A DNA stretch of 62,055 nt, counting the filler, from Sphacelaria rigidula (Eukaryota), in NCBI GenBank assembly GCA_964200075.2. It is 9 parts of 9 records of this genome, joined end to end, with 100 filler letters (N's around TTAATTAATTAA, not from the genome) between each part and the next. Parts side by side here need not be neighbours in the genome. Positions count along the whole stretch, not along the records: positions 34,534 to 41,339 come from CAXNAA020017990.1; 8 more parts are not named here. One strand, 5' to 3'. Shown here piece after piece: positions 15,421 through 62,055 of the stretch; the first letter of the stretch is position 1, and each line of letters begins with the position of its first letter. A program made the translations under genes and the position numbers. The notes beneath the pieces were generated by a model. That model ran no database searches. It saw nothing but the letters and a program-made list of their open reading frames with translations, and was not told the DNA's origin.

Positions 15421-15644
15421 CGTACTAATTTGTTGCTTGCCTTGGAGTCTAGTCGTGTGACCATTCACCACGAATCCCTTTCAGTCAGGGGGTGGGGGGG
15501 GGCGTACTCATTTGTTGCTTGCCTTAGTCATTTGACCATTGACCACGCATCCCGTTCGAGACGGAGCCACGGGGGGGGGCGTACTCATTTGTTGCTTGCC
15601 TTAGTCATTTGACCATTGACCACGCATCCCTTTCGAGACGGAGC
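15421..15644 (-). mobile_element. Three tandem copies of the G-run-anchored ~65-nt element (15421-15482 degenerate, 15503-15567, 15580-15644)
   Basis: Core CGTACTCATTTGTTGCTTGCCTTAGTCATTTGACCATTGACCACGCATCCCTTTCGAGACGGAGC on +, each preceded by G-rich sequence; CAGTCAGGGGGTGGGGGG is duplicated at 15482 and 15644. Strand given is the inferred RNA sense. Confidence 0.85.
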
Positions 15645-16303
15645 AGTCAGGGGGTGGGGGGCGGGAAATAGCGTCTTCCAACATACCTCACGCACATCGT
15701 TCCGCCACGAGAACGCAATTCGCTGCTTTATTTTCGATTGCTTCCTATGAAACTTTGACACGATGTACAGGATGTGTGAGCGAAGAGCCCATTTCCCCCC
15801 CTTCACATTTTGTTTTTGCGTGAGTAATCGGCGACGAAACGTTTCAGAACAGTTCTCCATAATTAAATCGAGAGGAAGTCACGAGAAACTAATGTACACG
15901 GGGAGAAGTTAGGGTCTTTGCACATACCGCATGCACGTGGTATCAAAATGTACCTATTCGCATCTTCGGCGGCCCGGCGTGTATATGCAGCGTGAGTCAT
16001 ACGTACATGTTGCCCACCTTTTGCTCGTATGATATAAATAGTGGAAACATGTTGCTTCCCACCTAAAGTTCATGGGGCGCAACTGTTCGATGGCTCAGCC
16101 GCCTTGCAGATCAAGTGAGCAAGTATACGCGTATACGTCGCGAACCCCTTGAGGGCTGAATCCGCAATAAGCCCAATCTCAAGTTTTTTACTCGCACCTA
16201 ACACATCATCTATCGTACAAGAAACGCGTCTGCGTGACCAGAGCGGTTTCTCCAGCCGTATGTTTTTGGCGAAAAACAAAAGTAGGTACGGTCCCCCTTA
16301 CTC

Positions 16304-17638: not shown

Positions 17639-18153
17639 AAATATGGTGCCGATCGTGTGTGAACATATCTTGATATCGGTAGACTGTATTTGGAGCGGGA
17701 CAGATTCGCTTGATAACTTGCCAATCTGATCGCTCCATTCCGCTTGGGAATCGCCAGCGGAGTACTTTAGCACCAAGTCTTCGTGTTCGTGCACCAGGGG
17801 AGTACTCTAAAACCAAGTGTTTTGCGGTCTAACTCGTGGCGACTTTCAGACAAATCCAGTATCATGGATAATACAGTATTATAAACATACTTGAGTATTT
17901 TTCCCAATTTCCCCATCAAGCTCCGGCGAGAACCCGGCGTGCTCCGCCTCGGCTTCGCAGGGGTGAACCCCCGATGGGGTTGGCGCGAGGGGCCCCATAT
18001 CGTGAAATGGCTGCACCAACGCCCCCCAGGCCGCAAAAACCTCATTCTGGGGTTGGAGGAGGAGGGGTGGTACCCGATTCCATGGGGGGGTACCCCCCTG
18101 ATCGCTGGATGATGGCGAAAGTAGTTGCTGCGCTGCACCGCACGTGTAGTAAT

Positions 18154-21881: not shown

Positions 21882-23826
21882 AGTGCCCGTGCGAACTGCC
21901 CCACCTGTTGCTGTCGTCTATTCAGCATTCCCTTGGACTTGTGTAAATACCGCGGATCTGGAGACACGACGACAGCCACAGTCACTAACCACGCTGTTCG
22001 TCATTCGTCACACCCAGACCTCACGACCTGTGCAGTCCTGTCAAACGTTAAGTGTAGTGTGCGTTTTGTCAAGATGTGGGCAGGCCATTTGCCTACGGTA
22101 GGAAGGAGAAGTGATACAGAGGATAAACGACCGGCGTGATTCCAACGTTGGCGAGCGAATGATAGCTGCCGTGCCGAAGTACAAAGCATTGGATATACTT
22201 CCAGTCTCAAGAGCCTGAGCCAGCAGCTGCGGAGGAGTTACGGAGAAGAGCATTCAATTTACGAGGCTGACGTATCCTACATGACTGACATGTCAAAGGA
22301 GTGGTGCGCCGCAGGTAATGAAGTACAGTAGATCTGGTTTTTGTCGGAAAACAAAACCATGTGTGCTCAAAGGATCACATGAAAATGCAACAGCTCATTT
22401 GGATATCAATCTACCGGAGAGAGCATTCATCGGGAGGTCCGCCTCAGTTTTCGAGAAGCTGAGGGGGTTAAAATGCGAAAGGCGGGGGCCTATGAATATT
22501 TCAGTGCAGCACAGGGTAGAACAGGTTGCGTGTTTTAGATGGGCACCGGGCGGCGCCTATACGTTAAGAAAAACGTTTATTCTGGGAGGGTGAACTCATC
22601 ATCATCATCATCTATATATATGTAAAAGTGATTCAACGGGATGCATGGTTTTTGGATAACATTTACACAATGCAGTTGTGTGCAGAAATTTCTAAATATG
22701 ACGGTACCAACACACCTCTAGTTCGTGTACAGTGACGGGCTAGACACAGTTACCCACTAGTGTAAATAAGCCCTAAGTATTGGGAAAACGGAAAAACGCA
22801 ACAAAACAATGCGACGCAAGCTAGGGTCGCACACTGATTTCTTCACGGCGCAAAGATGAAAAAAGTAACTGAGTTCCTCCTTGCATGAGGATACAGAGCT
22901 CGCGCCTCGTGATTCGATTTGATTATTTTTATTGATTGTCGCATATTAACTGAACCCCCAGAGAACCAGTCGTGTGGTCACATTATAGACGTACCCAAGA
23001 TAAAAAAATACTGAAACACTCGCTGATGAAAAGGAAGGAACAGAAAAAGTCGAACGTAACGACAGCGTAGACTCAGACGTGAAGCAAAAAAAATGAAATG
23101 AGAAGTCAAGAAAGGCAAAGCACAGAAATACAAGGCCGGTCCGAAACGAAGTAAAAGAAAACAAAAAGAGAGAAAAAACAAGGTGAAAGATCACGGGATT
23201 CAAGGCAGCAGAGTAGATACAGGCACATGAATGATTCTTAAACCATGTCTTAGCGTGATGAACAACTTCGATAAGAAAGCATCGTCGGGTGTGACTGGTC
23301 GCGCATTCATGAATTTTCTGGATGTGCGTCATATTTTCCCACGCTACGTTCCCCTACGAGCAGTTACGTCCCGCAGTGGTAAAAGCCAACATGAGTTTGT
23401 GTACTGCCCAGTTGGAGTGTGTGCGAAACATACCTTGAGTAGAAATTCCCCTCTTTCTCGTATGCAGCTATTAGTGATAAAATAATCCTGCACCCTGATG
23501 TGCGGATGTCAAGACCGAAAGGCGTGTACACGTTGAACAAATCTGAAATCTTGCGTGATGTACAATGTTTGCAACATTCACTTGCTATACGAGTAGGATG
23601 TTCCAGTGACAGCTGGCATCACTATATCAGGGTGCGGGGTTACAGTATGAGGCTTCCAATTGCTATATGAAAAACGACTGGAGAATCGACAAATGTTATT
23701 TTTTGCTGCAATGGTATTTGTTTTTGCCGAAGCCCCAAAAGGACTACTTCGAAAGTCATTGCCATGTTCGAAAGATAAGATTCGCGTCTGATTTTTCTTG
23801 GGGGCGGAGGGGAACGGGGGGGGGGG

Positions 23827-23840
23827 CGTACTCATTTGTT
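23827..23840 (-). mobile_element. Heavily truncated copy of the G-run-anchored element
   Basis: G-run + CGTACTCATTTGTT(G), flanked by the exact direct repeat GGAGGGGAACGGGGGG (23806-23821 and 23841-23856). Confidence 0.75.
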
Positions 23841-23897
23841 GGAGGGGAACGGGGGGTTTGCGCGACCAACCACACGCCAATCATCATGATTATTATT

Positions 23898-23899
<2 letters not shown>

Positions 23900-23933
<34 letters not shown>

Positions 23934-23967
23934 GCTGTTTTCTTCACATTTAAACCGTTCCGATATC
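23900..23967 (-). mobile_element. Non-LTR retroposon 3' end with long (CAA)n tail
   Basis: (GTT)n followed by TCTTCACATTTAAACCGTTCCGATATC; reverse complement matches 8285-8325. Confidence 0.55.
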
Positions 23968-25953
23968 CGTAGAGTACCCTGTACTGGAAATCTGATGCGG
24001 AGGCATTTCTTGATTGGTGATAACGCAAAGTAGGGTATGAGAAAATCAAGAAAGTGAAATCGGACACGGAAAAACTCACACAGATGCGAAACCGAAAGAA
24101 CAAACAAACGAAGAGAACGATATTTTTAATGTCATGAGTGCAATTTCTAAATCTGATTATTTTGTCCTGATCAGACATGGCCCTGCCCCCTTGAACGCCC
24201 CGGCCATTAGATGGGCACTCAAAGGAGATCCTCTTCCGGGAGAGATCAATGCAGTTGGCGGCAGTTCTAAGACGTCTTCGTGAGCGAACTCCTGTCCCCG
24301 ACTCAATATGTTTTTTTTTCAATTCCAACGTGGTATTTCAATGAGCCACTCAAGCATTGGAACGGTTGAAGTCCACACGCACACGCACATCATGGACGAC
24401 AAATATCGACTGCGAGACATGCTATGTAATATCAGAAAGCATACGGACGGCGAAATGATGGAGGGAAGCGTCATCAACGGACTCAACAGCACACTCCCGC
24501 GACGTCTTGCTCGGAAAAAGGTGACCACACGCTCGCCCCGAGTGGACCCGATTCCCCACGACGATATTTTGATTACCACAACGAGCAATCTTGCGCGATT
24601 TGTCGCACCGTGCTCCCCATGACCTGATCTTCGGTGTGTGAAATGCACATGTTGGATATCCATCAACACGCCTGTACAATACATGACTGTGTTGAGAATA
24701 GTATATTTTTAGCGTTTGTATCACCGCTGAGGGATAGAGGCAAACCGTTTTGCTCTCACATATTGAATATAATGCCGCCCTAGAGGCACCCGCACCTTTG
24801 GCATTTGGCGCATCATCGCCGGAGAGTAAGTAAGCTCCATCTGAGATTTCTGAGGCTCCAAAAGTTCAGTCAAATACAAAACGTCGTATGGCAAAGCCTC
24901 GAAGAACAGACTGTGGGGCATATTCGCAGTGGTCGCGGAGAATGGGCTCGGGCGTCGAACATGTCGCAGGATCGATGAAAGCAATAACTGTTTTGGTGGA
25001 GAGCAAATATGTGCACAAGAACGGCGGTTGACACGCATGTGGGTGCCGTGCGCCATAGATTTGTACGCACGACCAGCAACGCTTTCCTGCCCAGGACAAC
25101 ATTAAAAGGGTACACGTGAGTGGTCGGTAGCAACAACGTTTTGAGCTGAACAGCCGAACGTTGTGGCGTGTCGTTAAATAACGGGTGTACATTTTGCATG
25201 TGCGATTGGTGTGGGTACTGTGGGATGGCAATTGAATGCCTGAGGTATGCGGGACCCCCCCCTCCCCCGTTCTCAGACAGCCAACTAATGGGGAGGAGCA
25301 TGGGTTGACACACATACACGAGCAACGCGCATGAAACTCCAGCTGTGCGATTGTCGCCTTGATCAATCCCTGTGGCTTGATTCAAATACGAGACAGGGGA
25401 ATCTACCACCCCAATACCACTAAGGCTGACAGTATTCACAACTGGATAATACACAGAAGGCCAAAAGGGTGCACCCGCCTCGCCCACTCATGGCAAAATG
25501 CTGCTGCAAGCCTATAACTCTATGATAACTCATGCGACCGCTCAAGCCCTTTGAGCGTGCATGTACTACGCCCGTCGAGAACATTCGTTAGTCCGAAAAC
25601 TCACGGCTCTGTCCAAGGTATTACTTGGTATTAGTGGCACTGATTTGATGAGCCAAGTCATGGATCTGAGCAGAAGTTCTGGCTTCGAGGTTTGGAGTTT
25701 GCAGCCCCATTCGCAATCGAATACTTAGAGTTGTACCCAAAAATTTGATATGGACAATAAATACGGGATAAATGAGAATATATATACATGGACCCAAAGA
25801 TATATGTTTAGAAGTATATTTGCGTGATTTTACAGCATCTTACTGAAACCTGAAAACTGATTATTGTCTTTTAACTAGTGAAAGAAAAAAACTATTTGGG
25901 TCCATGTACCTTTCATTATTACACCCTAGTGATTGTCCATACCGATTCGTAGG

Positions 25954-26207: not shown

Positions 26208-27483
26208 TATGGTCCAACTCTAAGCATTGAATTGCGACTGGGCCCTTTAAAAACCGGGCCGGTACAAATTCGGAATAGTATTTTGCAGGCCACGTACCGG
26301 CCCAGGTTTAGTAGTTGTGTATTGAAAAATTGTGTAGAACCTCGCTAGGCCATGGCGAACGAAAAAAAGTGGGAAGGGTTGATTTTTGCTATTTGTTTTC
26401 ACGCATTTAGACGTTTTGGAATAGTAGAGACCATATTTTCACGAGAATTCCCATACTCCCCTCCCCCCCCCCAAAACAAAATGACGGCCGATTTTTTTGT
26501 TCGGCGTGCTTTTGCGATTCTCCATGATAAGTTTCAAGCTACAAGTCTTATTATTGAGCTGAAGAACTGAAATGAGGTCCGAAAGCATTGTCCATTTCCC
26601 CTTCAAACTCCCCTTGAAAACGAAAAAATGAGTAATTAAGTTGATTAGTTTTTCTTCATTATGCACCAGCGGTTCTCCTTACGAAATTCTAAAGCACAAC
26701 TCCGAACACCTGAGACGCGATTATCAGATGTAGTGCATTTAGTGCCTCTGCTCGCAATATACTGATTTTAGTATAGAACCTTAGGTGCGCCATATATCGA
26801 GATAGATAACGAATTAGGCGAAGGTGAGGGTATCGATCGTCTCACCGTGGTCCAGGGCATGTCCGCACCAAAAATCGCCAGCATCAGCTAAATACATCGT
26901 TCGGGGTTTCATATGGGCTTGAGTATGGACGCTATCTCCATACGATATGTAAGAATTACAATTTTAGACATGGGGTTTAATCAACGAGAAACAAATGACC
27001 CAAACGTTTGAGAAGAATGACACCTTGCTCTTGATCAGACGTTTTAATACGAAATGCGGATAACGGTCCAACTCGTTTGTGTCGCCGCGATATTGCTTCG
27101 AGAGCTTAAAATTCGCGTCTAGGCCGGTCCAGCTCGGATGAGGCATTGCACTCACGATCATCCTGGTCAGTACATCCACCACATATCGTGCATACAAATA
27201 CTTACAACAGTAGCCATTTTTCGGCGTGGTTCCCGAACATTCATGTAAGCAACCAATGTTACCTTGCCACTCTGTCATACACGCGGTGATGATGCAATAC
27301 AATGAACCACCATCCTACAACCACAGAGCATACCGAATTGTCACGATGGATCAAGGCGCCAAAACAAGCTGTCGAGTCGTTAAACTCGTCCGCAAGTCCA
27401 GGAAATTTCAAGAAAAAAGAGGCGTTCGTCCAAGATATGTTTTTCGGCCCACCAGTTTGGGGGAGGGGGGATGGGGGGGGGGG

Positions 27484-27527
27484 TGTACTCATGATCATGC
27501 ATGCCATAGTCACAAGACCATTGCCCT
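27484..27527 (-). mobile_element. G-run-anchored element, subfamily 2, cut by the contig end
   Basis: G-run + TGTACTCATGATCATGCATGCCATAGTCACAAGACCATTG. Confidence 0.75.
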
Positions 27528-28690
27528 NNNNNNNNNNNNNNNNNNNNNNNNNNNNNNNNNNNNNNNNNNNNTTAATTAATTAANNNNNNNNNNNNNNNNN
27601 NNNNNNNNNNNNNNNNNNNNNNNNNNNATCTCCTAGTATAGATATCGTCTTCTCCCTACTGTCTAGTGCATCAAACGATTGCATACCACCTTTGTTCACG
27701 TCCCGGATTTCCTCCTCTAGCACGTCCCGTTCCGTCCCGTTCGGGTAAGGGGGGGGAGGGTTTATAGGTGTGCGGGTTTATTTTTTCTCGTGCACCCCCG
27801 ACATCTCTTCATATTGTGAGACAGTCGCGTACATATCAGGACGCAAACGGCGGTAAAAGGCGAGGGAAAAGAGGACCACGGGGTCACAGTGTCTTCATCA
27901 CCCCCCATGCAGCGCTGTTCCCACCTCCAGCTTATAGCCGAAAGTCTGTGAAGCAGCCGTCATGATCCTTTCGGTCGTGTCTCCCGGACCCCGAACCAGC
28001 AATCCTCCCGGCGTAGTGTCTGTGGTCAGCGCGGATGGGAGCAGTGTCGGCCCCACGTACACCTCGCCGCTGATATCATACTGCCGGCAAAGGCGACACA
28101 TGAGCACATGCGAGGTCGGGGTCATTAGTGTAAGCTACATCTGGCACATCATATATAAGTCGCGAGTGATCAAATCCGATCCGGTACCTGTACATCGGCC
28201 AAAGGCGCGGACGAAGGATCGCAATACCTCGAGCACGTATTTGGTTTTTCGGGGGCTTACCTGTAACATCCCCGACAGAAGAGCCTTTTGGAAGGCCCTT
28301 TCCATACGGTCCCCAACCTCGGTCGCGAGAACGCAGTTGTGGAGGAAGAGCTTCGTGGGACGGTCAAGCTCGAGAGCGACCTCCAGTAGCTGCATGCTCT
28401 CCACCCCGATCCCCATCACGACATATCCTGCCAGGGGGAACCTGTCCGACGACAGTACGATGATCCCGACGTCATGACAGATCCACCACAATCGATCACT
28501 TTAGGAGCATTCTGAACAGGATGATTCCCGCTCGAAACTTGGCTGAGACCTGTCCCAACATGTATTACCACGCAAGGCACGTGCAGCGGGGGGGGAGGGG
28601 GGGGCTCTCACGGACAGATGCTGTGTGTACGTTACGGGGTTGACGGCAATGCATTACTTCATTGTGTTTTTAAATATTGTAATAATGTTC

Positions 28691-29868: not shown

Positions 29869-30944
29869 TCTACCTTAAGACGAGCCACAGTGCTCAAAAG
29901 GCACGTTTTCCTTTTTATTTTTTTCCTTCGATTGAACATTAAATCTTGATAGAACCACCAGGGTCGAAGAGTAGGATGACTTCAAGAATGTTTTGTTATC
30001 GGCAAGTAGTCATTCTGTTCTAGTTTCCGAGTTGGTTTGCGTATTTGTTTGCTTTCAAGAGTGTCATATGTCCTTGTTCTTCTGTTGAACTGGGGGTGAT
30101 ATACAACGCCACACTAAATGGATATCTCGTCACGTGTACCACGTCAAGATTCATTTTGCAGGCTTGTAGTCGGATTGTTTTTGTCGGCATATATTGCCCG
30201 TCCGTTTCATCCCCTGTTTTTCGATCACTGTTATGCCCTGCCCATTTATGCAGTATTTTTCATTCATGTATGCCCCGAGGGTATGGCTGTGATTTCATAT
30301 TTCGTCGTGTAGGGGTGTCATATCCCGTCATCTACGGTAATTGAACTTAAATTTTTGACTCGAGATGACTTCTACGAGAGATGTTGCGTTATACAGACAG
30401 TACAGTAGTCGGTGTCATATTCCCGACATGAACTATTTGGTGAAGCACTCAACATGTTGCCTTGTATGGACAACCACTTGTGTTCTCAACTGTATGGATT
30501 GACAGTCAGGACTTCAACTGACCGTGATGTACAGTTCAGGAGGGCAAGATCACATTGGCTGATGATACTGAGATGCGGTTGTTTTTTGGGTTCCCGGACG
30601 TTGGACGCTGATCAAGCACGTTGAGCACGCCGACTGCAAGCAGAGACGGAATTTCGAAGTGTTGTAATGAGCGATTCCACGTAGCATTTCTCTCATGTTC
30701 AACTGCCTTCTGTATACTGTACTCCAGGCTGATTACTGCTTGCATACCGCGCTGCATTACAGCCTGCTGTGTACTGGCGCATAATCGAAGTATCATGTGC
30801 ACTGCAATGTTGATACATTTACGTTTCTGATGCTGCGGGCCAATGCGGGCCAATGCGGGCCAATGTGGGCCAATGCCATTACTTTTGTTTTTCGTCTCTA
30901 CAGATTGTTTGTTGAGAATGCTCCCCTACCCCCCCGGCGTGTGA

Positions 30945-30977
30945 TCAAATGACTAAGGCAAGCAACAAATGAGTACG
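30945..30977 (+). mobile_element. Truncated G-run-anchored element in poly(C)-tail orientation
   Basis: TCAAATGACTAAGGCAAGCAACAAATGAGTACG + C12, flanked by the direct repeat CCCCCCCGGCGTG(TG)ATCAA. Confidence 0.8.
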
Positions 30978-33900
30978 CCCCCCCCCCCCGGCGTGATCAA
31001 TCTCGGATTCATATGTATACTTTGGGAAGCCTTATGCATATACTGTTTGTAAAGGGAACATTTGAATTGATTTAATTCTGGCGAGCCAACAAAATATAGT
31101 ACTTCTGCGTGTGTGAGTTGTCGTCTCATCCATTCTGAATGCCAGTTTACACCTTTCATTCTATGTGGGCACACTAGCCGGAGTCTGAAAGGAGGATCAA
31201 CATGTGATGGTAAATGACTGAGTGCCTGAATTAAACTAGTTTTTTGGGATTTGCTGATGGTCCCCAGAAACGACCGGCGAGTATGGGAAGATTCTAGTCA
31301 AATGTGTGTCTGTATAAGGCAGGATTTCGATTTTTTTTATTCGTTGACGCAGCTGCTTGAAGCGGGGTACAAGATTGTACCCGATTAGCCGCGTGTACCT
31401 GCTGCTACTACAGCTTTGATTGGCTGAGGGCACGGCGCGTCACGGTGATTTTGTATTATGACAAGGTTGTAAGCGGGGCAGGAGGACGTACTGACATAAT
31501 AGCTTTCCCCAGCTGTTGTACCTCGCCTACCGAGGTCACTCGACACACCGACCGCAGTCTGCAGGCATCTATTGGGTATAAGAAGAGCTTTTTACGATCA
31601 TCAACCACCACTGGTCTCCCTGCCTACAGTGTCGCGAGCCACAGTATTGACGTGAGTCTCTTGTTGTGCTATATGTGTACCCTCATCCACAATTGTTACT
31701 TGTTTTCTGGCCTTGGGCTGTGTGATTCCCAAACAGCCAGTTGATCGAAAGAGAAAAAACCCACAGTTTGATACAACGAGTTGATCGCAGGACGGGCTTG
31801 CCATAATCTCATCCGCCTTGGGGTGTAGCTTGCTCTGCTAACGAATACCCCGGCAAACACAGGATTTGGTTTTTTTCCCTGTATGTTTTTAGTACTCCAC
31901 CTTATGCAAACCGAAAAAAGCGACCGCGGGCTGGGCGACGAGAACGCAACCGCTTGGGGGACTAAGCAGAAGCCAGGGCGCAGGAACCAAGCACGCTTTG
32001 GCATTTAGGTTTTTATCATTTGATTTCTTCGGGAGTTTGGATTTGATTCGGAAAATTTCCGCCTCGTTGTTCACAGCAACCTGACATGCCGACCATGTGA
32101 AACGTCCCGTGATTGCATTTTTTTGTTTGATTGTTCTAGTTTTTGTTCCCTACGCCCTACGAAGTACTACCGTAGTTCGGTTATGAGTCTTTTACTTTAT
32201 CCTTCACATGATTGCAGTGATTTTGAAATTATCGAGGAAGAAAATAATGGGGGGGGATTAGACTATTTGCTACCATGATTCCCTTTTCGGGTAATTAAAA
32301 ATTTGACTATTTGCTACCGTGATTCCCTTTTCGGGAAATTAAGAACATGTGGTGGGTTATACACAGCAGATTATTTTGGTGGAAAAATCATGTGATGGGG
32401 TGATCCACGGCGGAGTATTTTGGACAATTTGATTCGTCGGTTATGGATTTCGAGAGGGAGTTTGATATTTTGCAATCCGCGGTAAAACGTTTTTGACAAA
32501 TTGATTCGCCGGCGCTGGAGTTTGGGTTGGACATTTTCAACTGCTGAAAGAACATGGCGTGGATTCAACCTCGAGTATACTTCTGAGAGTGGAACGGTTT
32601 TTAGTCTTGGATGTCACTAAACAATTGACTACCCACCCGCCGTTCAACATGAGGGACTGACTATGCACCAGGATACTCACGAGAATTGACTCTGGGGTCA
32701 TCGATGTTATGTTTTCATATACTACCTGGAAGCAATACTCCCTGCAAGTCAATATGTAATATTGAATCGGGGGGGGCGTTTTAATACGGAGCAGTTTATG
32801 TCACGTCCTCTCCAGGGTGTGGCGTTTATTCAAGGAGTGATACCCGTCCTGATACATTTTGGGTGATAGTCCTGTTAATGAAGCGTAACTCCTAATTTGA
32901 CTTCTTTGCATGCACGTGGACTTTGGTGTACAGGGATTGATTTTTGTGTGAAAGAGAAAATTTCTAAGTGGGACGATGAATTTGACGATTTCGGGAATTT
33001 ATCGGGCCGGATGACGAGCGAGATTTGCATCAAGATCAGTAATTCGAAATGAAGTGGACTGATCAACCGCTATTTTTAGTGACAATATTTTTAGTGCTTA
33101 CAGAGTTTGGTTCTATGTTCCAAGTTTCTCCCTGATAGAATATTCGCAGTACAAGTCGTTGTGAAATGAAGGAGTACACTGGTACATTCATTTTTTCTGG
33201 GGTATTTTAGGTTTATAAGTGAACGAGGTTCAGAAGAGATGTTTTTTTTTTGTGTTCTGATATCAATGGATCCAAGCCTGCAAGTATTCACTGATGTGGG
33301 TAATATCAACTATTCTAGGCAGTTGATAGATCGTCGACATCAGGGAGGCTAATGATGTTTTGAAAGTGACTCTGTCTTGTTTTTCTAGGACACAGAGTTG
33401 TACAAACAGAAGCAGGTCTTGTGTTCTTATGTTGGGGCAGATAGGAAATCTATTTATTTCTGTATCCGAGCATACCTCTAGTTTTAGTGTTTTGATTTGA
33501 ATTGATTCGATTTGAATTTGAATTCCGTTCTCGAACTCGAGGAGAAGTGGTACACACACTACTACTGAAAATTTTCATTTTGCGGTGTGTATTTTACATA
33601 CTATTTCGAGGAGTTGCTCTTTGTTCAGTGGAATGATACCGCGGTCACTGCACATGTTGACGGTAGACACTTGCCTGATGTAGACCGTGTTGTAAACGGT
33701 ATGTTGAACCAAATTTCACATAGACAACAGCATCTTGCTACCATGAGAATAATGCGTTTTTGACAGATTCGAGTATTTGAAGGTTGAGTGTGTTTCTTGA
33801 ATGCCATCATGGTAACTGAGAAGTATGAAAAGACGTCCACTGTGCATTCATGTGTGATTTTTGGTTGTTCCAAGGAAGATTTGGGAACTGGTAATGATTG

Positions 33901-34377: not shown

Positions 34378-34433
34378 GGCTCATCCTACGATAGGGGGGG
34401 GGTATTTGGTTGCACGAAAAACGAGGCTCATAA
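34378..34433. mobile_element. Terminus of a TIR element related to the Sola2-like MITE
   Basis: TCATCCTACGATAGGGGGGGGGTATTTG.TTGCACGAAAAA.GAGGCTCA; reverse-complement match at 41450-41504; resembles the MITE TIR GAGCAATGCTACGATAGGGG. Confidence 0.6.
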
Positions 34434-34620
34434 NNNNNNNNNNNNNNNNNNNNNNNNNNNNNNNNNNNNNNNNNNNNTTAATTAATTAANNNNNNNNNNN
34501 NNNNNNNNNNNNNNNNNNNNNNNNNNNNNNNNNTATCTGTGTCTGTAGTCATTCTGGTGTCCCTGAAATCCCCACAGAATCATCCGCGTGCACCGGGGGG
34601 AACGTCAGGCAGTGGGGGGG

Positions 34621-34685
34621 CGTACTCATTTGTTGCTTGCCTTAGTCATTTGACCATTGACCACGCATCCCTTTCGAGACGGAGC
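34621..34685 (-). mobile_element. Full-length G-run-anchored element
   Basis: Identical to 15580-15644; flanks GCAGTGGGGGGG and GCATGTGGGGGGG. Confidence 0.85.
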
Positions 34686-35126: not shown

Positions 35127-36751
35127 CAAGGGGCCCTACAGACTGGAATGCGTTACGCAGGGCCTCGGATTCCCGAAACCCTCCCTCTGGGCGAGGGGGG
35201 GGGGAGGGGGGGTGCTACCCCCTTTTGGAGGGGTGGGTACCCCTCTGATCAGATGGATAATGACGACAGTAGGTACTGTACTTTGCAGTACGTGCATGAA
35301 CGGCTTCTCCTGGCTTGTGCCAGGCTTGTGTACAAATTGTGTATGGTACGGTTGCACGGCAGGTGGTAGGGGTACGTCGACGTAAGTAACGTTCAAGTCT
35401 TGATTATTATTCGTGAGAAAAGCATCCTCTCGTAAGGATCGACTAGACAACATGCGGCACGATACATGAACCTGTGAAAATTTCTGGAAACGTAGCCGTG
35501 GTTGTTCTGAGACCCGCACATTGTTGGAGTAGACTATGCCAGCATGAATAAAGATTACAGGACCGTGACTTCTTTACTACTTTCTTTACCGGCATCATCT
35601 TTACGAGATTCTCGTTTGTCCCTTCTCCTTGTGTCGCTGTGCAGTATGCCGACCTTTAGAGATGGCCATTTGAACAGCTGTCCGGGCGCGCGCACTGCCT
35701 ACGCGGGCACCAGGTGATCATCCTTGAATCATCTACAATTGTTTGATACCATGGAAGTACTGTCATAACCTTTTCATGCCGGTTGGAATTGTACACGGTG
35801 AGGACAAATAAGATCGTGATTCAACTCATGTTCATCATTTCAACAAATAAATAATACGATTCGTACATCATGTGTGATTTATACAGGTTTTGAGCTATTG
35901 TGTCGTGCAGTACACCGTCAACAGTACCACTTTCCTACCTTCAGGTCATTGGGGGTAGATCATGGGCACATATTGATCCCCTGTAAAAAAATGCGGAATG
36001 AATCACTTGTACATGCCGCCCACACTTACCATGAGGCGTGAATGGCATCTACATCTATGTCATGCGTATGACTCGTGCGGAACGAAGAGTGGGTATATCG
36101 TTAAATCCTCTCATCTCATGGGCCTTGCATCAGTCGTCCTTTTCTCCCGATCTGTATGCGGTTGAGATGACTGTACTGCATGTGTGATACACCGTCGGGT
36201 ACATGCGAGACCAACAATTCATACAGGTTGACTCCTGTCGTTACATGAGTAGTAAACTCGTATGAATCGTGATTTGTCCTAACCATGGAATTATTCAGTC
36301 AAGTCACAGTAGTAGTGTATAACTTTGGTGTCACTCAGCGATACATATAACCCGTCGTGCACTTGCCTTGATGGACAAACAGAACGCTATCGGGTTCACA
36401 TCTTGAGTATGCTGCCCTCTCCAGCATTGCGCCCTCACTACTGTAACATCTATCCCAAAGTCATTATCCAGCGGTCACCTTGACTGAAAAGTCATCATCC
36501 AACCGCCAAGTTCTCTTCCCTGCGGCCGCTAGAACAACTGATATGCCCAATCTCCTCGGTTTTGGGCTGCTCGGGTACAGGCCAGCATCGTGGTGGTGAA
36601 AATACACTTCAATTCTGTATACTGGCGAAGAAACAGGGGGGGAAAGGTTTTTGGACACCATTATTCGATTTTCCTCAATCTCGACCGCCTCTGGGAGGGG
36701 GGAGCGAGGGGGGGGGGCTGCGTAACGTATTCCAGTCTGTAAGGCCCCTTG
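35127..36751 (-). mobile_element. ~1.6-kb TIR element with a decayed transposase-like remnant
   Basis: 34-bp TIR CAAGGGGCC(C/T)TACAGACTGGAAT(G/A)CGTTACGCAG; minus-strand peptide SSFRTSHTHDIDVDAI (~36040-36090) resembles the GHTH-x-D-x-D motif of Sola-type transposases. Confidence 0.7.
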
Positions 36752-36898
36752 GGCCAAGTACCGTGATGTCGTTCTGTATACCACGCACGAGTATGATCTG
36801 ATCGATTTTACACCGCATCATCAGACAACTTAGGTTGTTGTGTGTAGCTAAGATACATGCTCATCAAGTGGTTTAGGTTTTGACCGGCCAGATCCTTG

Positions 36899-36938
36899 CT
36901 GTTGTTGTTGTCTTTGCATCAAAAACCGTTCCGATATC
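36899..36938 (-). mobile_element. Non-LTR retroposon 3' end with (CAA)n tail
   Basis: GTTGTTGTTGTCTTTGCATCAAAAACCGTTCCGATATC. Confidence 0.5.
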
Positions 36939-37548
36939 TCCACTGCTGTAGATGAACATATTGAGGTGAAGTGAAGGTCATGTGTTGCAATAATCGCCCT
37001 ATCCAAATTGTTGAGTAGTGCGATCTTGGCCTTGAACGATGAGTTGTAGGTAGTTGTACCTTCCTGCTAAGTTTTATTCTGCTGCAGTTCGTGCAATGTG
37101 AGTAATCTTCGATCGCGTGTCGGACAGGAATACTGAAAAATGACGTTTTGGCGAGTACAGATATCGTAATCTGCCCGTGCTGCTTTGGGAGGGCTGTCGA
37201 TCGTTGGTTTGTTTGCTGTACTGGGTGAAATTGAGACGGACACTTCGATAGGGACATAAATTCAGATATACACTACAATTTGTTGTCACTATTATTGTTG
37301 TTTTTGCTCCGTCCACTTCTTCGACTCCGTCGCGTCCTTCTCGGGGATGTTGAAGAAAGTGACACAAAATCGGGCAGAACACTGCTGGTTTCAGACTGCA
37401 TGAAGCGTGTCATATGGGCGACATTGGCAATAATGCCCCCACGAGTGGGAGTTTCTAATTGCCCCATTTCCTCGGCTTCTGCCTTTTTCTCTCTATATAT
37501 ACATGTAGGTTGTGCTTCCTCAACTTAGTCACTTTCCTGGGGGAGGTG

Positions 37549-40900: not shown

Positions 40901-40950
40901 CCCAGGTGTGTATGTACCCTGGCTGAACGTCGACTGACGTGGGGGGGGGG

Positions 40951-41021
40951 TGTACTCATGATCATGCATACCATAGTCATAAGACCATTGACCTCGCATC
41001 TCTACAAAGCCGGGACGGAGC
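40951..41021 (-). mobile_element. Full-length G-run-anchored element, subfamily 2
   Basis: G10 + TGTACTCATGATCATGCATACCATAGTCATAAGACCATTGACCTCGCATCTCTACAAAGCCGGGACGGAGC; same GACGGAGC end as subfamily 1. Confidence 0.8.
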
Positions 41022-41278
41022 ACGCCGGGTGTTCGCCGGACCAGGCCCGCACTCAATCACCAAAGCGCCGTGGTGTGTTCGGCGAGTCGCATGAAGGGTG
41101 AGCTGCATCCTGCTAAGATTGTTCGGCCCCGAGCCTACTGATTATCTTGCATTCGGATCTCAGCCTCCAATGAGTTGCTTTATTTCGTGGTATCGCCACT
41201 TCCTGAGACAGCCACGGCTTACACACTGCCTTATGGGTGCCTTACCATATGAACATATGATATGATGTGGGGGGGGGG

Positions 41279-41339
41279 CGTACTCATTTGTTGCTTGCCT
41301 TAGTCATTTGACCATTGACCACGCATCCCTTTCGAGACG
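41279..41339 (-). mobile_element. G-run-anchored element cut by the contig end
   Basis: G10 + consensus core up to ...TTCGAGACG. Confidence 0.85.
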
Positions 41340-41854
41340 NNNNNNNNNNNNNNNNNNNNNNNNNNNNNNNNNNNNNNNNNNNNTTAATTAATTAANNNNN
41401 NNNNNNNNNNNNNNNNNNNNNNNNNNNNNNNNNNNNNNNCTGACACACTTGTGAGCCTCTTTTTTCGTGCAAGCAAATACCCCCCCCCTATCGTAGGATG
41501 ACTCCGTACACCATCCCTCACACCTAGCACTGCGTCCTATCCCTAGGCCCATTTTTTTCATTCCAAGCTCACTGCTGTCAATTCATCAACAAGAGCGATG
41601 TACAGGATGATTGTCAGAACTAATACATCGAGAAGCAGGAACGGTACGACTGACTACTCTACAGTGCCGTGACTTTCACCTAGAGCACTGCTACACCATA
41701 ACATGTAGGTCCAAGATTGCTCGTTGAACTCGGGAAAAATAGTCGAAAACCAAAATGGCCGTACGCGAGAAAAAACCACACGGCCCCCTCGGCACGAAAA
41801 TATTTATTCACTCTTTTTTGTCATGCTCATCAGCCGCAGCAGGAAAAAGCTTCA

Positions 41855-44900: not shown

Positions 44901-47607
44901 ACTTTGAGGGCGAATCGTGGATGTTGCCGATATTCCAAACAGTTGCTTTGTTGAGCTTGCCTGCTCGCCCGAACGTGCCGCCGACTCATGCTTGCTGTCT
45001 GTCTTATGTCCGACTGGCGGACCAATTTTCATGGTGGTGATTCTACCCACGGTCGAGAAATTATCAAGCAAAGCCTCTTTTCAAATGTGCAATGATTTTC
45101 GTGGGCCAAGTGCGGGAGTTCACAAATGTAGGGCCGGCATTCTGATATATTGAATTCTTTTTTATTTTGGCATAGAAGAACGTTTTCGAATGCCATTAGC
45201 ATGGAAATTCACAAATATTGGGCGGGCAGTCTGATATATTGTGGTTTTTGTTTTTTCTTCTGGCGCAAAACAACTTTTTCGAATGGTATCAGATATATGC
45301 GAGCTTTTGTGCGTGTAGGACACAAGAGCAAGAAGATTTAAGCCATACGTCACCCAGAACAAACACTAGATCACCCAATTTCCTCCGCAGAACGATGGCC
45401 ACCAGGTTGTACATGTTGAAAATGCATATGAACGCACTTCGGACGTAATATATATGTACTCATGTATCACCAGATCAGCACATGTGCGTTCGCGCATTGA
45501 GATTCAGCAGATATTGATTTCTGCGCATGTGCACGTACTAGGTTCGGCACTACAAGATAAGACACTGGCTTTCAACGACCGGGTGTATCGCCGTCCAGCT
45601 TCCGGGACATGTATCCTTGTTCTATTCCTAGCGGCCGACGGAAACAGAAGCAGGACAGATGAGGAAGCTAACATATATCATCCGGATGAGAACAACGCCC
45701 CAGACGTGGAGGTATTCTGCGAATCTACAGCAACTTTCCCAACGGTTGGCAGATTACTTGGCATTTTCCATTTGACGAATCGGGAGCAGGAATATGGTAT
45801 TGTGTTCTGTCGCACATGTGGATTGTTCATGGGGCATGGATAAGCCTTTCTTTGCTGTCTCGCTTCGTGAAACGGACAGGGCGCACGCTTGAACAGCTAT
45901 TGCGACCGATGGAATGCCACGTGTCCATCAATACTATAGCGCGTCACGGTAGGTGTCACATTTTCGGTCTCGCGCTTGTTGAATAGACAGCCCGCGTTGC
46001 TCCTTATGACCACAGTACCGTACAGTGATGTATGTAACCGTACTAAACATGACACAGTCACCTTGTACAGTTCCGGTCATGGAACAATGACTGCGTCTTA
46101 GATGCGGATGATACATGTAGGAGTCTTATACTTTTGATGGGTCAACCATAACTGTCTCTCAGTCGGTCACCTCCCACACGATTCAGGTTGTGGTTCGGTA
46201 TCGCATGCAGCCTCTTCAAACCAACAGTTGAGGCGGTGCCATGCATTTCCGTGCCGGCAAGCGCCTCATGATGCGTTCACATGCTCTCCCTCAAAACAGA
46301 CGGTGAAGAGGACAAATCAGGTAGTTTCAGTCATTATGGAACCCCATGAAAAATGACAGTTATATTTATGGAAGGATTCGCATGGTCGTGTCCCATCGGT
46401 CGATGGCTTCACGCTGTATTACTTTGTACAGCGGAACCCCGACTACAGTGTAGTCAAGACCACCCATCAGGAGTCTCATCCGCCATCCTAATACTCTGCT
46501 CACCCGTCCACAGGATCGCGAAACCTTGTCGGGGTGGTGTACGGGACGCTCAGGATGCTTCACCACCTTACGCTCAACATTTTTCGTTGTCTTTGAATTC
46601 ATGGCCAGAACAGCATGCAAGCGCCGACCTCACATCATGAATACCCTGTCATCCACGATGTATGTGGCGACGTATGTGTAGGTTCACAACTGCAGCCCAT
46701 AAACACCGGCGGCGGCCAAGACTCAGCACAGCACAGCTGATGTGTATCATTTTCGATTACGAACAGTTGCTTCGTTTATACAAACTCTTGTGAAAGTTTT
46801 GGAGACGACTAGAATCCCCCAAGATTGTTTCTTCACCTAGTACCCCGATATTTCGGTCATCAAAATCCAGAATTGTATGGAGTGTAGTAGTAGTAAAAAG
46901 CTACCACCAAGTGAAGAAATGGAAGCATACTCCGGAGATTTGGTGTGGATACGAAGATTTTAATTCTCCGAGTTTTCATCCCCAGTAAAAGATCCATATC
47001 GAATTCGTAACTTCCCGGGGCCTGTCCCGATCATATCTGTAAAAAAATGTGGATAAAAAAAAAAAATCTACTCACTCATCACACTAGATCCGAAATACTA
47101 TGTTTCACGGTCAATAACACCCTCCTGATGAACGGGGTACTTGCTCGTATCGCCCGATAACACCAACTAACACTGACTTGGACAATGTGTTTCGACAAGG
47201 ATCTATTCATTGTACCAAACTTTGCCGACGCTAGCAACTTCAAGTTATATCGAAGAGTAGTATGCGAGGAAAACCCCGAAACACCCCTGAATAGTTAGAC
47301 CGCCCACTACTGTAGTGCTTCATTCGCTCTCGAATCTTTCTGCAATAGTGTAGAGCACGTCCCATTCCCTTGAATAATCTTGCGAGTAGTGCTGTAGTTG
47401 TTGGCCTCAGCCTCCATGAAGCATGGTCTCAGTTGAGTGTAGGCAGCTGCTTTTTTTCCCGAGTACTTTGAGCGACAACGAAGTCATTCGTTATCTGAAA
47501 ATCTTCAACTCGTTCTCGATCATGATTCACGAACTGTTTTCCGCGGTATTCGCATTTGTGCTACTGTCAGCAGTTGGTTTCCGGAGAAGCACCACGCGAA
47601 GGAGCTA

Positions 47608-48245
47608 ATGGCCGAAGTCGCGAGGAAAACGTGCCTCAACAAGGGCTGCTCGAAGCCATCTCACGGTTCACACGGCTCCATGCCGGACTTGTGCTCTCAG
47701 CATGCCACGGCAGGAATGGTGAATGTGGTGAGCAAGAGGTGCGGCCACGAGGGCTGCTCCACGCGGCCGTGGTATGGTGTAGCGGGAAGTAAGAAGGCGC
47801 AGTTCTGCTCGAGGCATGCCACAGAAGGAATGGTGCGTGTGAGGAGCAAGAGATGCGGCCACGAGGGCTGCTCCACGCAACCGTCGTATGGTGTAGCGGA
47901 AAGTAAAACTGCGCAGTTCTGCTCGAAACATGCCATGGCGGGAATGGTGAACGTGGTGAGCAAGAGGTGCTGCTACGAGGGCTGCCTAACTCATCCGTCG
48001 TATGGTGTAGCGGGGAGCAAAAAGGTGCAGTTCTGCTCCAAGCATGCCACGGTGGGAATGGTGCGAGTTATTAGCACGAGGTGCGGTCAGGAGGGCTGCT
48101 CCAAGTGGCCGTCGTATGGTGTAGCGGGGAGTAAAAATGCGCAGTTCTGCTCCAAGCATGCCCCGGCGGAAATGGTGTATGTGAAAGGCAAGAGGTGCGG
48201 CCAGGAGGGCTGCTCTACTCATCCGTCGTATGGTGTGGCGGGGAG
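47608..48245 (+). CDS. EsV-1-7 cysteine-rich repeat protein (3' end lost at contig break)
   Basis: Uninterrupted ORF with tandem 38-aa C-x4-C-x16-C-x2-H repeats (KRCGHEGCSTRPWYGVAGSKKAQFCSRHATEGMVRVRS), the pattern of the EsV-1-7 domain family expanded in brown algae. Confidence 0.92.
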
Positions 48246-52298: not shown

Positions 52299-52358
52299 GT
52301 CTCGAAAGGGATGCGTGGTCAACGGTCGAGCGACTAAGGCAAACAAAAAATTAGTACG
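52299..52358 (+). mobile_element. Diverged G-run-anchored element in poly(C)-tail orientation
   Basis: GTCTCGAAAGGGATGCGTGGTCAACGGTCGAGCGACTAAGGCAAAC...TAGTACG + C-rich tail. Confidence 0.8.
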
Positions 52359-54829
52359 CCCCCGCGTCCCCCCTCCCTCCCCCGCGTTCACACAAGCCGT
52401 GGCGGTGCTAGGGAGATAACACGTGGTCACCCACAAGAGGGGACGGCTGCTTTAGATCAGATACAGGCGAAGGCCGCTTAAGATGCCCTTGCAAAAGTAG
52501 CAAGTATGTGGCGCCTAACCGCGTCGAATCACTCTCGTGAGAGCAACGCTTCGTCCTGTCGAGGAAGCATGGTCAAAAGTCAGAGCCGTGGCGTTCCAAT
52601 CGTGATCGGTGCCCCCCGATCCCCCCGTCGGAAACGATCGACGTACAATCCGCACAGTCACGACATGTTAAGTCGCTTACAGTTGACACCCGGTAACTTG
52701 AGCTGTGGAGTGGCGTCGCAGCATGGTGTTGAATATCCTCGAAGCTAACTATTGATAGTCTGTAGCGAACCCGCATGAGGCGGCGTAACGACACCTCAAA
52801 ATCGCCCTTCATATCGCGGGTTATGTCGACAGCAGCAGAGCCTGTGTTTGTTACACCGCGAGTAATTGTGACGGGCCAAAAAAAACACCCACACGTTTGA
52901 TTGCAGGTGCATACGACTGTTAAGATGTTGTTCTTGAGCGATCTATAGTACCCCGACCGTACCAACATGACACTCGTGCGTACCTCTCGTGCCACATTGC
53001 TTGTGCTGCGTTGTCTGTTCTTGACGAGTAGGGCTCACGCGGATGAAAGGCTCCGTGTGGAGGGAGTGGATTTCATCCGACGGTGAGTGTTGTACTGCTG
53101 TGGGTTGTGGGAGCTCCTCTTGTTGTGTATGTGATGGGTTTGGGTTTATGTTTGTGAGTTTTCTTTTTCGATGCTTCCTCCCCCCCAGTGTATGTCGCCG
53201 CAACAGTGTAGTGGTGAAGAGTGTTGCGTTTTCGAACGAGTTCGTGCTACCCCGCCATTATTGTGGGCGTTCTTTGTGATGGACTCCGTCCTCTCCCCTC
53301 AAGCGTTCGCCGGGTACTGCACCACATGATATGTTTTTATTTCCCCAGAAAGTGAGGCTCTAGTACGTGATGGCCAGCCGCAGTAAAGGCCAGCCACTCC
53401 TGCGAAAACTGTTGTCTCTTGCTTGCAGAAAAAACAAGCTGAGACAGCGAAGAATTGCTACTGGCGGTTGGGCAGTTTTGCCCTGATGGGTCTTCAACAG
53501 ATGGGAGCTGAATTTTTGACAAGATATTTGTATCATCAACACGCGAAAAAGTAGCCGAAGGTACCAAAAAAAAAAAAAGTAACACAAGAGTAGTTTTTAA
53601 TTTGTGAAAGAAAAAAATGTCGTGACTCAGCAATATAAAAAATAAAAATAAAACATCGAATTCGCGCGTAAAAGGTCTTCGTAAACTCAAAGCAGAAGAA
53701 AATGTGCAGGAGGATACTTTGATTTTTTGTGACCCCGCTGCAGCCGGTTGTTTAACTGATTCGGGAGACTTCAGTCAGGGTGAATGGTCACGAGTTTAAA
53801 TCGCAACATACTGCCTTTTTTTCTTGCAGAATCTGGTTCAGTCGTTGAGGTCATATGTTGTGCAGTAGATGTTTTTCTAAAGCGGGAGAGGGTGTCATCA
53901 GCCGGTTGGTCTGCAGTTCATGGCGATATACCTTCATCGGGCTGATTCGGGAAGCTCAAAGTGTTTTCGTGTGCCAAAGGAATGAGAATTTCTTGTCTGG
54001 CCCAGCTCGTAGTCGTAAGTGATGAGATCTACTGTAGTCCACGAAGTATAGGGAGCGTTAAACCAATTTTTTAACGCCAAATAGACCAATACAAGGTGTT
54101 TCGTTATCAGGTTTACTCACCTCATCTTGTATTGCCATCATCCGTGATTCCTCACCAGGGAGCTAGAGGCGGACAGGAGAAGGAGGGAGAGGGCCAGTGC
54201 CCGAGCTGTGATGTCGGCGCTTAGTGACTACAATGTACAGCCTGCAGCTATACATGTATGTCCAAAATAATCCGATGGCGGACGCAAGCGTTCGCTTCTT
54301 TGCTGTCAAATCTGTCAACTGCAACAACTATTAAGCTGTTTTTCGCCGACCTATCGTTTTTTTGCAGCGTTTTAGTGGAATGTCAATGACCTGCGGGTAC
54401 TGAGTCCTTGTGTGGTTGATGCCACCTTACGGTTTTCGAGGTGTCGATATACGCCGAAGTATGTCACAGGCAAACTGGAGAATTTTCGATGGAAGATGAC
54501 AGTATTCATGTAGCACCTCGCGATGTCAAGACTTATCTGTTCCGACAGATGGAGCACACGATCTTTCGAACGGTAGTGTATCTGCGTTAGCTTTGTCGCC
54601 GGCGGAAAACAAGTTTGCGAGGGTGACGGCAGCTTGTAGAAACACGAGAAAGGAGCCAGTCCACTTGCTGTAGGCTGGAATGAAGGCTTCGATTCGTTTT
54701 GTGTGCCCGAAGGGCTATGCGCACCCGTTTGAGAAATGCTACCCTGACAGGTATAGACACGTTTCCAGAAAAATCTCGAGGCTTGTGAAGGTCAAGAAGG
54801 CTTTTCTGGCACGTTTGAGGCTTGTTGTA

Positions 54830-61995: not shown

Positions 61996-62055
61996 GCTCC
62001 GTCTCGAAAGGGATGCGTGGTCAATGGTCAAACGACTAAGGCAAGCCACCAATGA
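61996..62055 (+). mobile_element. G-run-anchored element in poly(C)-tail orientation, cut by the window end
   Basis: C-rich flank, then GCTCCGTCTCGAAAGGGATGCGTGGTCAATGGTCAAACGACTAAGGCAAGC... Confidence 0.85.

Follow-up and report, generated by a model that had tools for sequence, protein, structure and literature searches.

A two-hairpin tail at the 3' end of a brown-algal LINE as a candidate handle for template recognition by reverse transcriptase

Background

HDV-like and other self-cleaving ribozymes occur at the 5' ends of retrotransposon RNAs, and microsatellite-specific elements of the R1 and R4 clades were reportedly described by Kojima and Fujiwara in 2004. To our knowledge, the retrotransposition biology of brown algae has been little studied.

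In the stringent LINEs of zebrafish, the ORF2 protein binds the cognate 3' stem-loop, recognizing the stem in a general way and the loop specifically (PMC4176376). Other LINEs end in simple repeats, as in (TAA)n for the I element or (TGTAA)n for UnaL2, and show template slippage (PMC3747384). For Ectocarpus, a third paper describes abundant 5'-truncated LINEs and very short non-autonomous families, including a non-autonomous element that has its 3' end in common with RTE-X LINEs (PMC12477816). The words "hairpin" and "homopolymer" have no occurrence in the main text of that paper, where the single "microsatellite" refers to Tandem Repeats Finder annotation and "target site" refers to Harbinger elements, neither of them having a bearing on LINE tails.

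The locus described here is a short G-tract element that recurs in a window of 62,055 nucleotides from Sphacelaria rigidula (assembly GCA_964200075.2). An earlier note on this DNA had recognized two hairpins in the element and proposed selection on a folded RNA, such as an RT-recognition structure or a processing motif. By analogy with the stringent LINEs, the two-hairpin module is probably a "stringent-type" handle, carried on the tail of a LINE, by which the LINE's own RT picks its template, in combination with priming on a C tail.

Results and discussion

Copies of the element in the window

The window consists of nine pieces of about 6.8 kb each, which are not contiguous and are joined by N44-TTAATTAATTAA-N44 linkers. 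At 40941-41021, read on the plus strand, a run of ten G is followed by TGTACTCAT...GACGGAGC. The junction between the G run and GTACTCAT was the target of a search of the window with GGGGGGGNGTACTCAT, which at two mismatches or fewer gave 10 matches where 0.09 were expected (10 or more were obtained in 0 of 100 shuffles). A match of this junction search at 22584 is spurious, with no copy of the element. The copies at 15421-15482 and 61996-62055 were added by BLAST, and the total comes to 11 copies or fragments within the window. The ends of copies at 27527, 41339 and 62055 are cuts made by piece ends, an artefact and not biology.

Read along the poly-C strand, the layout is GCUCCG, hairpin 1, CGUGGUCAA, hairpin 2, GGCA..GCAACA.., UGAGUA and a short simple repeat, here (C)n. 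Two subfamilies are distinguished, and the features are as follows, with the position of the element itself in parentheses where it differs from that of the feature.

40941 to 40950, minus strand: C tail of the subfamily-2 copy, G10 (C10 in sense), perhaps fused to the target's own G run
40951 to 41021, minus strand: subfamily-2 copy of the 3' tail module, in sense order GCUCCG, hairpin 1, linker GCGAGGUCAA, hairpin 2, AUGAGUACA
41022 to 41262, minus strand: 5' (upstream) body of the subfamily-2 element, from translation and BLAST, its 5' end undefined
34614 to 34685, minus strand: full 65-nt subfamily-1 unit (34621-34685) and a G7 run, with hairpin 1 at 34666-34681 and hairpin 2 at 34643-34656
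15483 to 15661, minus strand: head-to-tail dimer of 65-nt units (15503-15567 and 15580-15644), sitting at the end of an older copy
15421 to 15482, minus strand: older copy, 5'-truncated by 10 nt and with a 7-nt insertion; hairpin 2 loop ACAC
23806 to 23856, minus strand: remnant of 15 nt from the 3' end (23827-23841), enclosed by 16-nt direct repeats GGAGGGGAACGGGGGG
27477 to 27527, minus strand: subfamily-2 copy (27484-27527), cut by a piece end; hairpin 2 loop UUGU
27628 to 27733, minus strand: LINE ORF fragment in the first stretch of the next piece, corresponding to residues 1158-1192 of the ORF of the related contig L001 (60% identity over 35 aa)
30929 to 30998, plus strand: 31-nt 5'-truncated copy (30947-30977), with direct repeats GATCAC(A)CGCCGGGGGGG
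41272 to 41339, minus strand: subfamily-1 copy cut by a piece end, its retained 61 nt (41279-41339) equal to the unit at 34621-34685
52299 to 52363, plus strand: older subfamily-1-like copy (52299-52358), 5'-truncated by 5 nt; loop GAGC; stop codon TGA changed to TTA
61996 to 62055, plus strand: older subfamily-1-like copy with a full 5' end; loop AAAC; cut by the window end

In the subfamily-2 copy at 40951..41021, AUGAGUACA occupies 40951-40959, hairpin 1 has the base CGUC/GAUG and an apex of 13 nt, and hairpin 2 reads U-GGUC-UUAU-GACU-A at 40974-40987 on the minus (poly-C) strand. Among the proteins encoded in the window is one with six EsV-1-7 repeats.

Identity of the element and its relatives

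An exact search with 33 bases found a sole metagenome contig, L001, whose minus (poly-C) strand holds an open frame of 1253 aa with matches to Exo_endo_phos (E = 3.1e-11) and RVT_1 (E = 7.7e-33). This frame ends inside the element: its last 19 codons and TGA (GCT CCG TCT CGA AAG GGA TGC GTG GTC AAT GGT CAA ATG ACT AAG GCA AGC AAC AAA TGA) are followed by GTACG and C8, and the ORF end is 100% identical over 73-74 nt to the copies at 34614 and about 15572. A second contig, L003, carries a LINE 95% identical to that of L001, with a frame of 1382 aa and a C13 tail; it is these related contigs, and not the window, in which the endonuclease/RT ORF was located. In both contigs the end of the ORF, through TGA and GTACG, equals the 65-nt unit at 34621-34685. 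L003 is filed inside a "bacterial" MAG. The nearest named homologues of the LINE protein are Ectocarpus proteins at 57-71% identity, and the solved chains closest to the L001 ORF protein are R2 and LINE-1 ORF2p. The Ectocarpus homologues, the EsV-1-7 protein and the label of one sequencing run that contains the sequence, algae metagenome, point to a brown alga or a close relative as the host; no RNA run was listed among the runs that contain it.

Sequence comparison identifies the G-tract element as the module that closes the 3' end of an APE-type non-LTR retrotransposon (LINE), and not as a free-standing RNA gene. The endonuclease and RT occur in one element, the 3' end is collinear, and there are 5'-truncated copies with TSDs. 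The autonomous element has its tail module overlapping the final 19 codons and the stop codon. The earlier note had been right to read the poly-C strand, which is the sense strand of the LINE ORF, and had missed the coding 3' end of a LINE as the identity of the element. A strict SINE carries a tRNA-, 5S- or 7SL-derived 5' head and, inside it, a pol III promoter; the 65-nt unit is headless and does not belong to that class. ARAGORN detected 0 genes in the window, and Rfam gave 0 matches there at gathering score. An unexplained "G-tract repeat" can now be annotated as copies of a LINE tail, to be masked in this genome.

Subfamily 2 has only the last ~68 nt in common with the LINE, at 79% identity. 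The ~240 nt upstream of that segment contain stops in all three sense frames and have no similarity to the L001 LINE ORF. This body is repeated in the genome at least as far as ~41212 (contig pieces 40952-41202/41212), with loose contig ends at 41046 (frequent) and 41063. The carrier of the module in subfamily 2 is therefore either a non-coding element or a LINE, not seen here, whose untranslated end contains it.

A search of a prokaryote genome collection with the LINE protein turned up many related LINE copies in one genome, G001, which is filed as a MAG of 16 Mb, has megabase-sized contigs and is evidently eukaryotic. Protein identity between the G001 LINE and that of L001 is about 38-40%. 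The G001 tail reads GCUCCG-CCUGC-GUAU-GUGGGUG-CGUGGUCAAU-GGCG-UAAG-CGCU-ACGGCAGCAACA-UGAGUAU-(AUU)n, different copies ending in (ATT)n or (TTTA)n, and it has in common with the algal tails the linker UGCGUGGUCAAUGG and the blocks GCUCCG, GGCA, GCAACA and UGAGUA. A further LINE (L009, 25% identity) terminates in ...ADGQLGAE* and shows no evident hairpin there. Viral contigs scanned with a degenerate tail pattern yielded 0 matches, and no relatives were present among viral-contig loci in 122 pattern matches. The sole match of the degenerate pattern in genome contigs (L002) is bacterial and arose by chance, as did 11 of the 35 stretches from a second pattern scan, which lie in real prokaryotes (L032, L035, L041, L043, L044, L047, L051, L058, L061, L062 and L065).

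Insertion, truncation and abundance

All of the shorter copies (15, 31, 55 and 60 nt) retain the GTACG-C(n) end. In three insertions, a small sample, the element lies between direct repeats of 16, 17 and 18 nt, each closing with a G run. The run is longer on the element side than on the other by 3, 5 and 5 G, the 5 extra G being found at 23806..23856 and at 30929..30998. The dimer at 15503-15644 lies inside a single 17-nt direct repeat, AGTCAGGGGGTGGGGGG (15483-15499 and 15645-15661). Head-to-tail joints of this kind are common in the contigs of four public runs, with 13-61 contigs per joint in run X1. In the same run, 1205 contigs part from the reference at precisely the 5' edge of the unit, and the consensus they form equals the upstream sequence of the LINE found in L001. 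The LINE tail family is very abundant, with the proviso that contig depths, when summed, do not give copy numbers and that poly-G reads may have inflated them.

The truncations and the G-run TSDs fit target-primed reverse transcription in which a nicked G tract, paired to the C tail of the RNA, is the primer. From the junctions of just three insertions, the endonuclease would nick a genomic G tract on its 3' side, and the end of the G tract would anneal to the C tail and prime RT, with slippage in the homopolymer. The cDNA would then be extended toward the 5' end of the RNA, a second nick being made 16-18 nt away.

The sharp 5' end

That the element has a sharp 5' end, as had been claimed, is borne out in the window, where four of the eight subfamily-1 copies with a readable 5' end begin exactly at GCUCC, the other four being shorter and none longer. 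This start coincides with the 5' edge of the block conserved with G001, and in the LINE RNA GCUCC forms the 3' arm of a predicted hairpin. Copies in G001 show no such sharp edge. The upstream sequences of L001, G001 and subfamily 2 all permit a candidate hairpin, H0 (GGAG.../...CUCC). The sharp 5' end would be explained by a site-specific cut, by a defined short transcript or by a preferred RT stop.

The sharp copies, 65 nt in length, raise the question of whether tail RNAs arise by processing. An account that is compatible with template recognition through the hairpins, and would add to it, is that site-specific cleavage immediately before GCUCC frees the 65-nt unit from longer transcripts, the short RNA being the main template copied; a host nuclease acting on the loop of the upstream hairpin GGAGUA-GGAACGG-UGCUCC, or self-cleavage, could be responsible. 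It gains from the readable 5' ends in the window, from the 1205 X1 contigs that break at the GCUCC base, from the coincidence of that base with the edge of the conserved block, from the predicted hairpin arm, and from the head-to-tail multimers, which suggest template jumps from a defined RNA 5' end. We nevertheless hold it to be unlikely, since a preferred RT stop would yield the same pattern, the G001 copies are without a sharp 5' end, ARAGORN found no tRNA-like gene in the window, and no ribozyme was found, by Rfam at gathering score in the window or at E <= 5 in L001 and L003. The Rfam comparison takes in the HDV-like, hammerhead, twister, pistol and hatchet families. Nothing supports a processing motif, which the earlier note had offered as an alternative, or a ribozyme. 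The sole match in L001 and L003 at that looser threshold is weak, unrelated (Ocean-VII) and far from the tail. The likeness to HDV-like 5' ribozymes is one of outcome only, a sharp 5' end independent of the upstream sequence; in contrast to them, the element matches no Rfam ribozyme model, and its first seven bases have no evident P1 partner, only GCUC/GAGU being able to pair.

A more extended proposal, which is doubtful, makes the 65-nt module a complete minimal retroposon: a cut dictated by structure, made in LINE or read-through transcripts immediately 5' of GCUCC by a host nuclease or by the RNA itself, would free a promoter-less, tRNA-sized RNA consisting of an RT handle and a C tail, which would be primed repeatedly by nicked G tracts. 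If this were true, the 65-nt tail RNA would rank among the genome's most abundant repeats and would create new G tracts in which later copies could insert.

Conservation and covariation of the hairpins

Within the window, the hairpin 2 stem GGUC/GACU is invariant in 9 of the 9 copies that span it, as had been observed before, and its closing U-A pair is kept in 8 of them, the copy at 52299 having C.A. The loop takes exactly the six forms previously listed, namely AAAU (four copies), UUAU, UUGU, GAGC, AAAC and ACAC. Hairpin 1, CGUCUC-GAAA-GGGAUG in subfamily 1, keeps its CGUC/GAUG base in subfamily 2, also as described. The G-U pairs form solely on the poly-C strand, in agreement with the earlier reading; several of them would be C.A on the opposite strand.

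Changes were counted by column between the reference unit at 34621-34685 (subfamily 1) and six other copies spanning hairpin 2, leaving out the copies at 15580-15644 (identical) and 41279-41339 (cut). The hairpin 2 stem had changed at 1 of 60 positions, the loop at 11 of 24 and all other columns at 25 of 192 (Fisher p = 1.3e-6 for stem versus loop, 0.008 for stem versus other and 3e-4 for loop versus other, all of them too small because of shared ancestry). Part of the loop variability is a single CpG>TpG change, three older copies having the AAAC-G type and the young family AAAU-G. The stem of hairpin 1 is no better conserved than the rest in the window (6/47 versus 25/192, p = 1), all six of its changes being flank aligned to the truncated copy at 15421.

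An invariant stem beside a variable loop is no covariation, and the structure is unproven from the window alone. Folding energies showed no gain over shuffles (z = +0.63 and -1.25; z = -1.20, +0.37, -1.29 and -0.94), and the minimum-energy fold of subfamily 2 does without hairpin 2. A closing helix GCUC/GAGU appears in one minimum-energy fold; its two sides never vary, so it is uninformative.

In hairpin 2, GGUC/GACU of the alga corresponds to GGCG/CGCU of G001, the inner pairs changing from U-A to C-G and from C-G to G-C. In hairpin 1, the third pair changes from U-A to C-G and the sixth from C-G to G-U, and the stem gains one pair; a few G001 variants add U-A, U-G and A-U forms. From a plain MAFFT alignment (23 tails), RNAalifold predicts hairpin 2 alone, with 2 of its 5 pairs changed on both sides (UA in 8 sequences versus CG in 10, and CG in 7 versus GC in 12) and with a weak covariation term, -0.26 of -3.02 kcal/mol.

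A covariance model built solely from 11 G001 tails (model R2) matches six window copies, L001 and L003 at E values from 8e-8 to 1.4e-4, the copy at 40951..41021 being matched at 1.4e-4. The alignment based on this model (A4) has 26 distinct rows and 12 pairs and is fitted to the structure of the model, which applies to each of the following figures. Paired cells make up 92.6%, versus 82.6 +/- 1.2 in shuffles; cells changed on both sides number 28, versus 9.1 +/- 3.3; and the covariation score is 0.380, versus 0.213 +/- 0.020 (0/500 shuffles for each), slid partners reaching at most 0.167 for the score and staying below the observed value in the other two measures as well. Two counts do not rise above shuffles, that of pairs altered on both sides (6 versus 4.2; 78/500) and that of further pair types (16 versus 16.9; 404/500). 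The rows amount roughly to two clades, alga and G001, plus a few G001 variants, and hence to very few independent covariation events.

Decayed G001 copies look neutral, in that C>U changes, which keep a wobble pair, are about as frequent at stem CpGs as G>A changes, which break the pair (a rough hand count over 74 distinct rows). In L003, an inverted copy that has diverged (about 560-620) apparently lacks hairpin 2. Between lineages, few as they are, the stem-loops are kept by compensatory changes, UA/CG and CG/GC in hairpin 2 and UA/CG and CG/GU in hairpin 1. The support for the earlier proposal of selection on a folded RNA comes from these both-side changes in G001, and not from the contrast of stem and loop in the window. 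The hairpins are probably a selected RNA structure.

Conservation at the RNA level versus the protein level

Coding constraint only is an explanation of a different kind, in which the conserved blocks would encode a C-terminal peptide, ...GCVVNG....*, and the hairpins would be a by-product. The tail module does lie inside the ORF in L001 and L003, and a motif [CRGE][VEA][VAEY][NDY]G occurs in the last 25 residues of 22 of the 120 homologues listed, mostly 6-8 residues before the stop and preceded by a variable linker. Against this, GCUCCG and GCAACA, which flank GCVVNG, are read in different frames in the two LINE families, and the third positions of TGC GTG GTC AAT (C-V-V-N) are all identical between LINEs that are ~38-40% identical in protein. 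Subfamily 2, moreover, retains the module behind stops in all frames. The hairpin 2 codons translate as GQMT, GLMT, GLVT, GRAT, GQTT or GHTT in the alga and as GVSA in G001, with the stem bases paired throughout. The loop variants are non-synonymous (QM, LM, LV, RA, QT and HT), and the first base C and last base G of the two loop codons, which are stem bases, are invariant across them. The differing frames, the fixed third positions, the non-coding context in subfamily 2 and the varying hairpin 2 codons argue for conservation at the RNA level, and an explanation by coding constraint only is quite improbable; a dual role of the module, as RNA and as peptide, is possible.

The absence of any selection, with young copies alike by descent, inverted repeats arising by chance and loop changes due to decay and a CpG hotspot, would suit the five window copies that are identical or nearly so to the consensus, the CpG at one loop site, the folding energies and the roughly neutral decay in G001 (by hand count), but is very improbable given that both hairpins recur in G001 with other, still pairing stem bases at so low a protein identity and that the window copies change so rarely in the stem of hairpin 2 relative to its loop and the other columns.

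Template recognition and comparison with known systems

Recognition of the tail by the LINE's own RT is the reading we prefer; conserved stems and lineage-specific loops are what the stringent model predicts. By analogy, the LINE protein would select its template by binding the hairpin module, with its conserved stems and subfamily-specific loops, and the same module would let the non-coding subfamily 2 and the 65-nt tail-only RNAs be copied as well. Conservation at the nucleotide level between proteins so far diverged, together with the overlap of the stop codon, makes this a clean case for RT template recognition, and it provides a compact candidate RNA handle (two hairpins in 65 nt) for a brown-algal LINE lineage. 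The finding of eukaryotic contigs inside "bacterial" MAGs is flagged here as a by-product.

Among brown algae, the LINEs of Ectocarpus and their dependents (RTE-X, RTE and CRE; RTEX-N1_Ec32) belong to the same host group, the one that supplies the homologues 57-71% identical to the LINE protein. Searches of the full-text literature found no described C-tailed LINE, which is weak evidence of novelty, and the supplements of PMC12477816 may list the family.

The algal tail resembles the stringent tails of L2-clade LINEs (UnaL2, ZfL2-1/ZfL2-2) and of SINEs in having a short conserved 3' stem-loop followed by a simple repeat. As in stringent LINE tails, the module may be common to an autonomous LINE and a non-coding element, and the stem is kept while the loop is lineage-specific (PMC4176376; PMC3747384). 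It differs from them in its place, across the end of the ORF and not in a 3' UTR, in having two hairpins and in ending in a C homopolymer; nor is the algal LINE, as far as shown, a member of the L2 clade, its closest named relatives being the Ectocarpus proteins. Like the simple-repeat LINEs (I element, UnaL2), the algal tail closes with a simple repeat whose counterpart is present in the target, and the length of the run differs across the insertion, as annealing and slippage predict (PMC3747384). Unlike in those LINEs, the algal repeat is a C/G homopolymer, the G001 relative of the module having (ATT)n or (TTTA)n. Four features of the algal element are uncommon for a stringent tail: it ends in C, it has a G-tract target, its module runs across the end of the ORF, and it has left numerous 65-nt copies whose 5' end is sharp. 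A C tail paired with a target of this type would widen the range of simple repeats known to be used in priming.

LINE tails in genomes with bacterial labels

The two-hairpin module that ends these LINEs also terminates a related LINE family in a 16-Mb genome (G001) that is filed as a Nitrospirales metagenome-assembled genome (MAG) and assembled into megabase contigs. LINE tails on these contigs number at least 150 and are accompanied by many open reading frames of the APE/RT type (loci L004-L030 and L066-L135), which marks the sequence as eukaryotic DNA under a bacterial label. At one of these loci (L093) the tail units form a tandem array with a spacing of about 145 nt. The contig that carries the 1382-aa LINE frame (L003) is a parallel case: an algal LINE contig within an "uncultured bacterium" MAG. 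Upstream of its LINE, at about 560-620, lies a diverged and inverted tail copy from which the hairpin-2 segment seems to be missing, AAUGG being almost directly joined to CAAGGCA.

Sequence shared with, or adjoining, tail copies

A 34-nt block at 17922-17955 (minus strand) is 88% identical to 41007-41040 (plus strand), where it covers the 5' edge of the module in subfamily 2, the family with a non-coding body, together with adjoining upstream sequence. The downstream part differs at the 17922 copy, with a G run and CGT about 85 nt off, and this locus may represent another family whose tail has been swapped.

Microsatellites adjoin element copies at 23930-23975 and 30850-30900: (GTT)n follows the 15-nt tail remnant at 23827, and a tandem repeat of TTGGCCCGCA type lies near the 31-nt, 5'-truncated copy at 30947.

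Other features of the window

The window (1-62055) is made up of nine pieces, each about 6806 nt long, linked by N44-TTAATTAATTAA-N44, the N runs starting at 6808, 13715, 20622, 27528, 34434, 41340, 48246 and 55151. The sequence does not continue from one piece to the next, so any feature that reaches the end of a piece is truncated there. Beyond the tail copies, the window contains:

1763-4364, minus strand: Copia-type LTR retrotransposon fragments (RVT_2 and a weak gag match)
About 34390-34433 and 41440-41510, two pieces, opposite orientations: separate family of repeats that carries a G9/C9 run in its interior
47443-48245, plus strand: open frame encoding six cysteine-rich repeats of the EsV-1-7 type (PF19114 in Pfam, E=5e-78)

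The separate repeat family reads ...CGTGCAA[C/G]CAAATA-C9-TATCGTAGGATGA..., and because it is conserved on both flanks of the run, the run is internal and no tail. Further repeat families occupy 35215-37030, where contig depth in four runs exceeds that of single-copy sequence by a factor of hundreds to thousands. Within the Copia-type fragments, the RVT_2 match spans 1763-2536 (E=4e-35) and the weak gag match 3228-4364. The EsV-1-7 frame breaks off where its piece ends; EsV-1-7 domains are characteristic of brown algae and of the viruses of brown algae.
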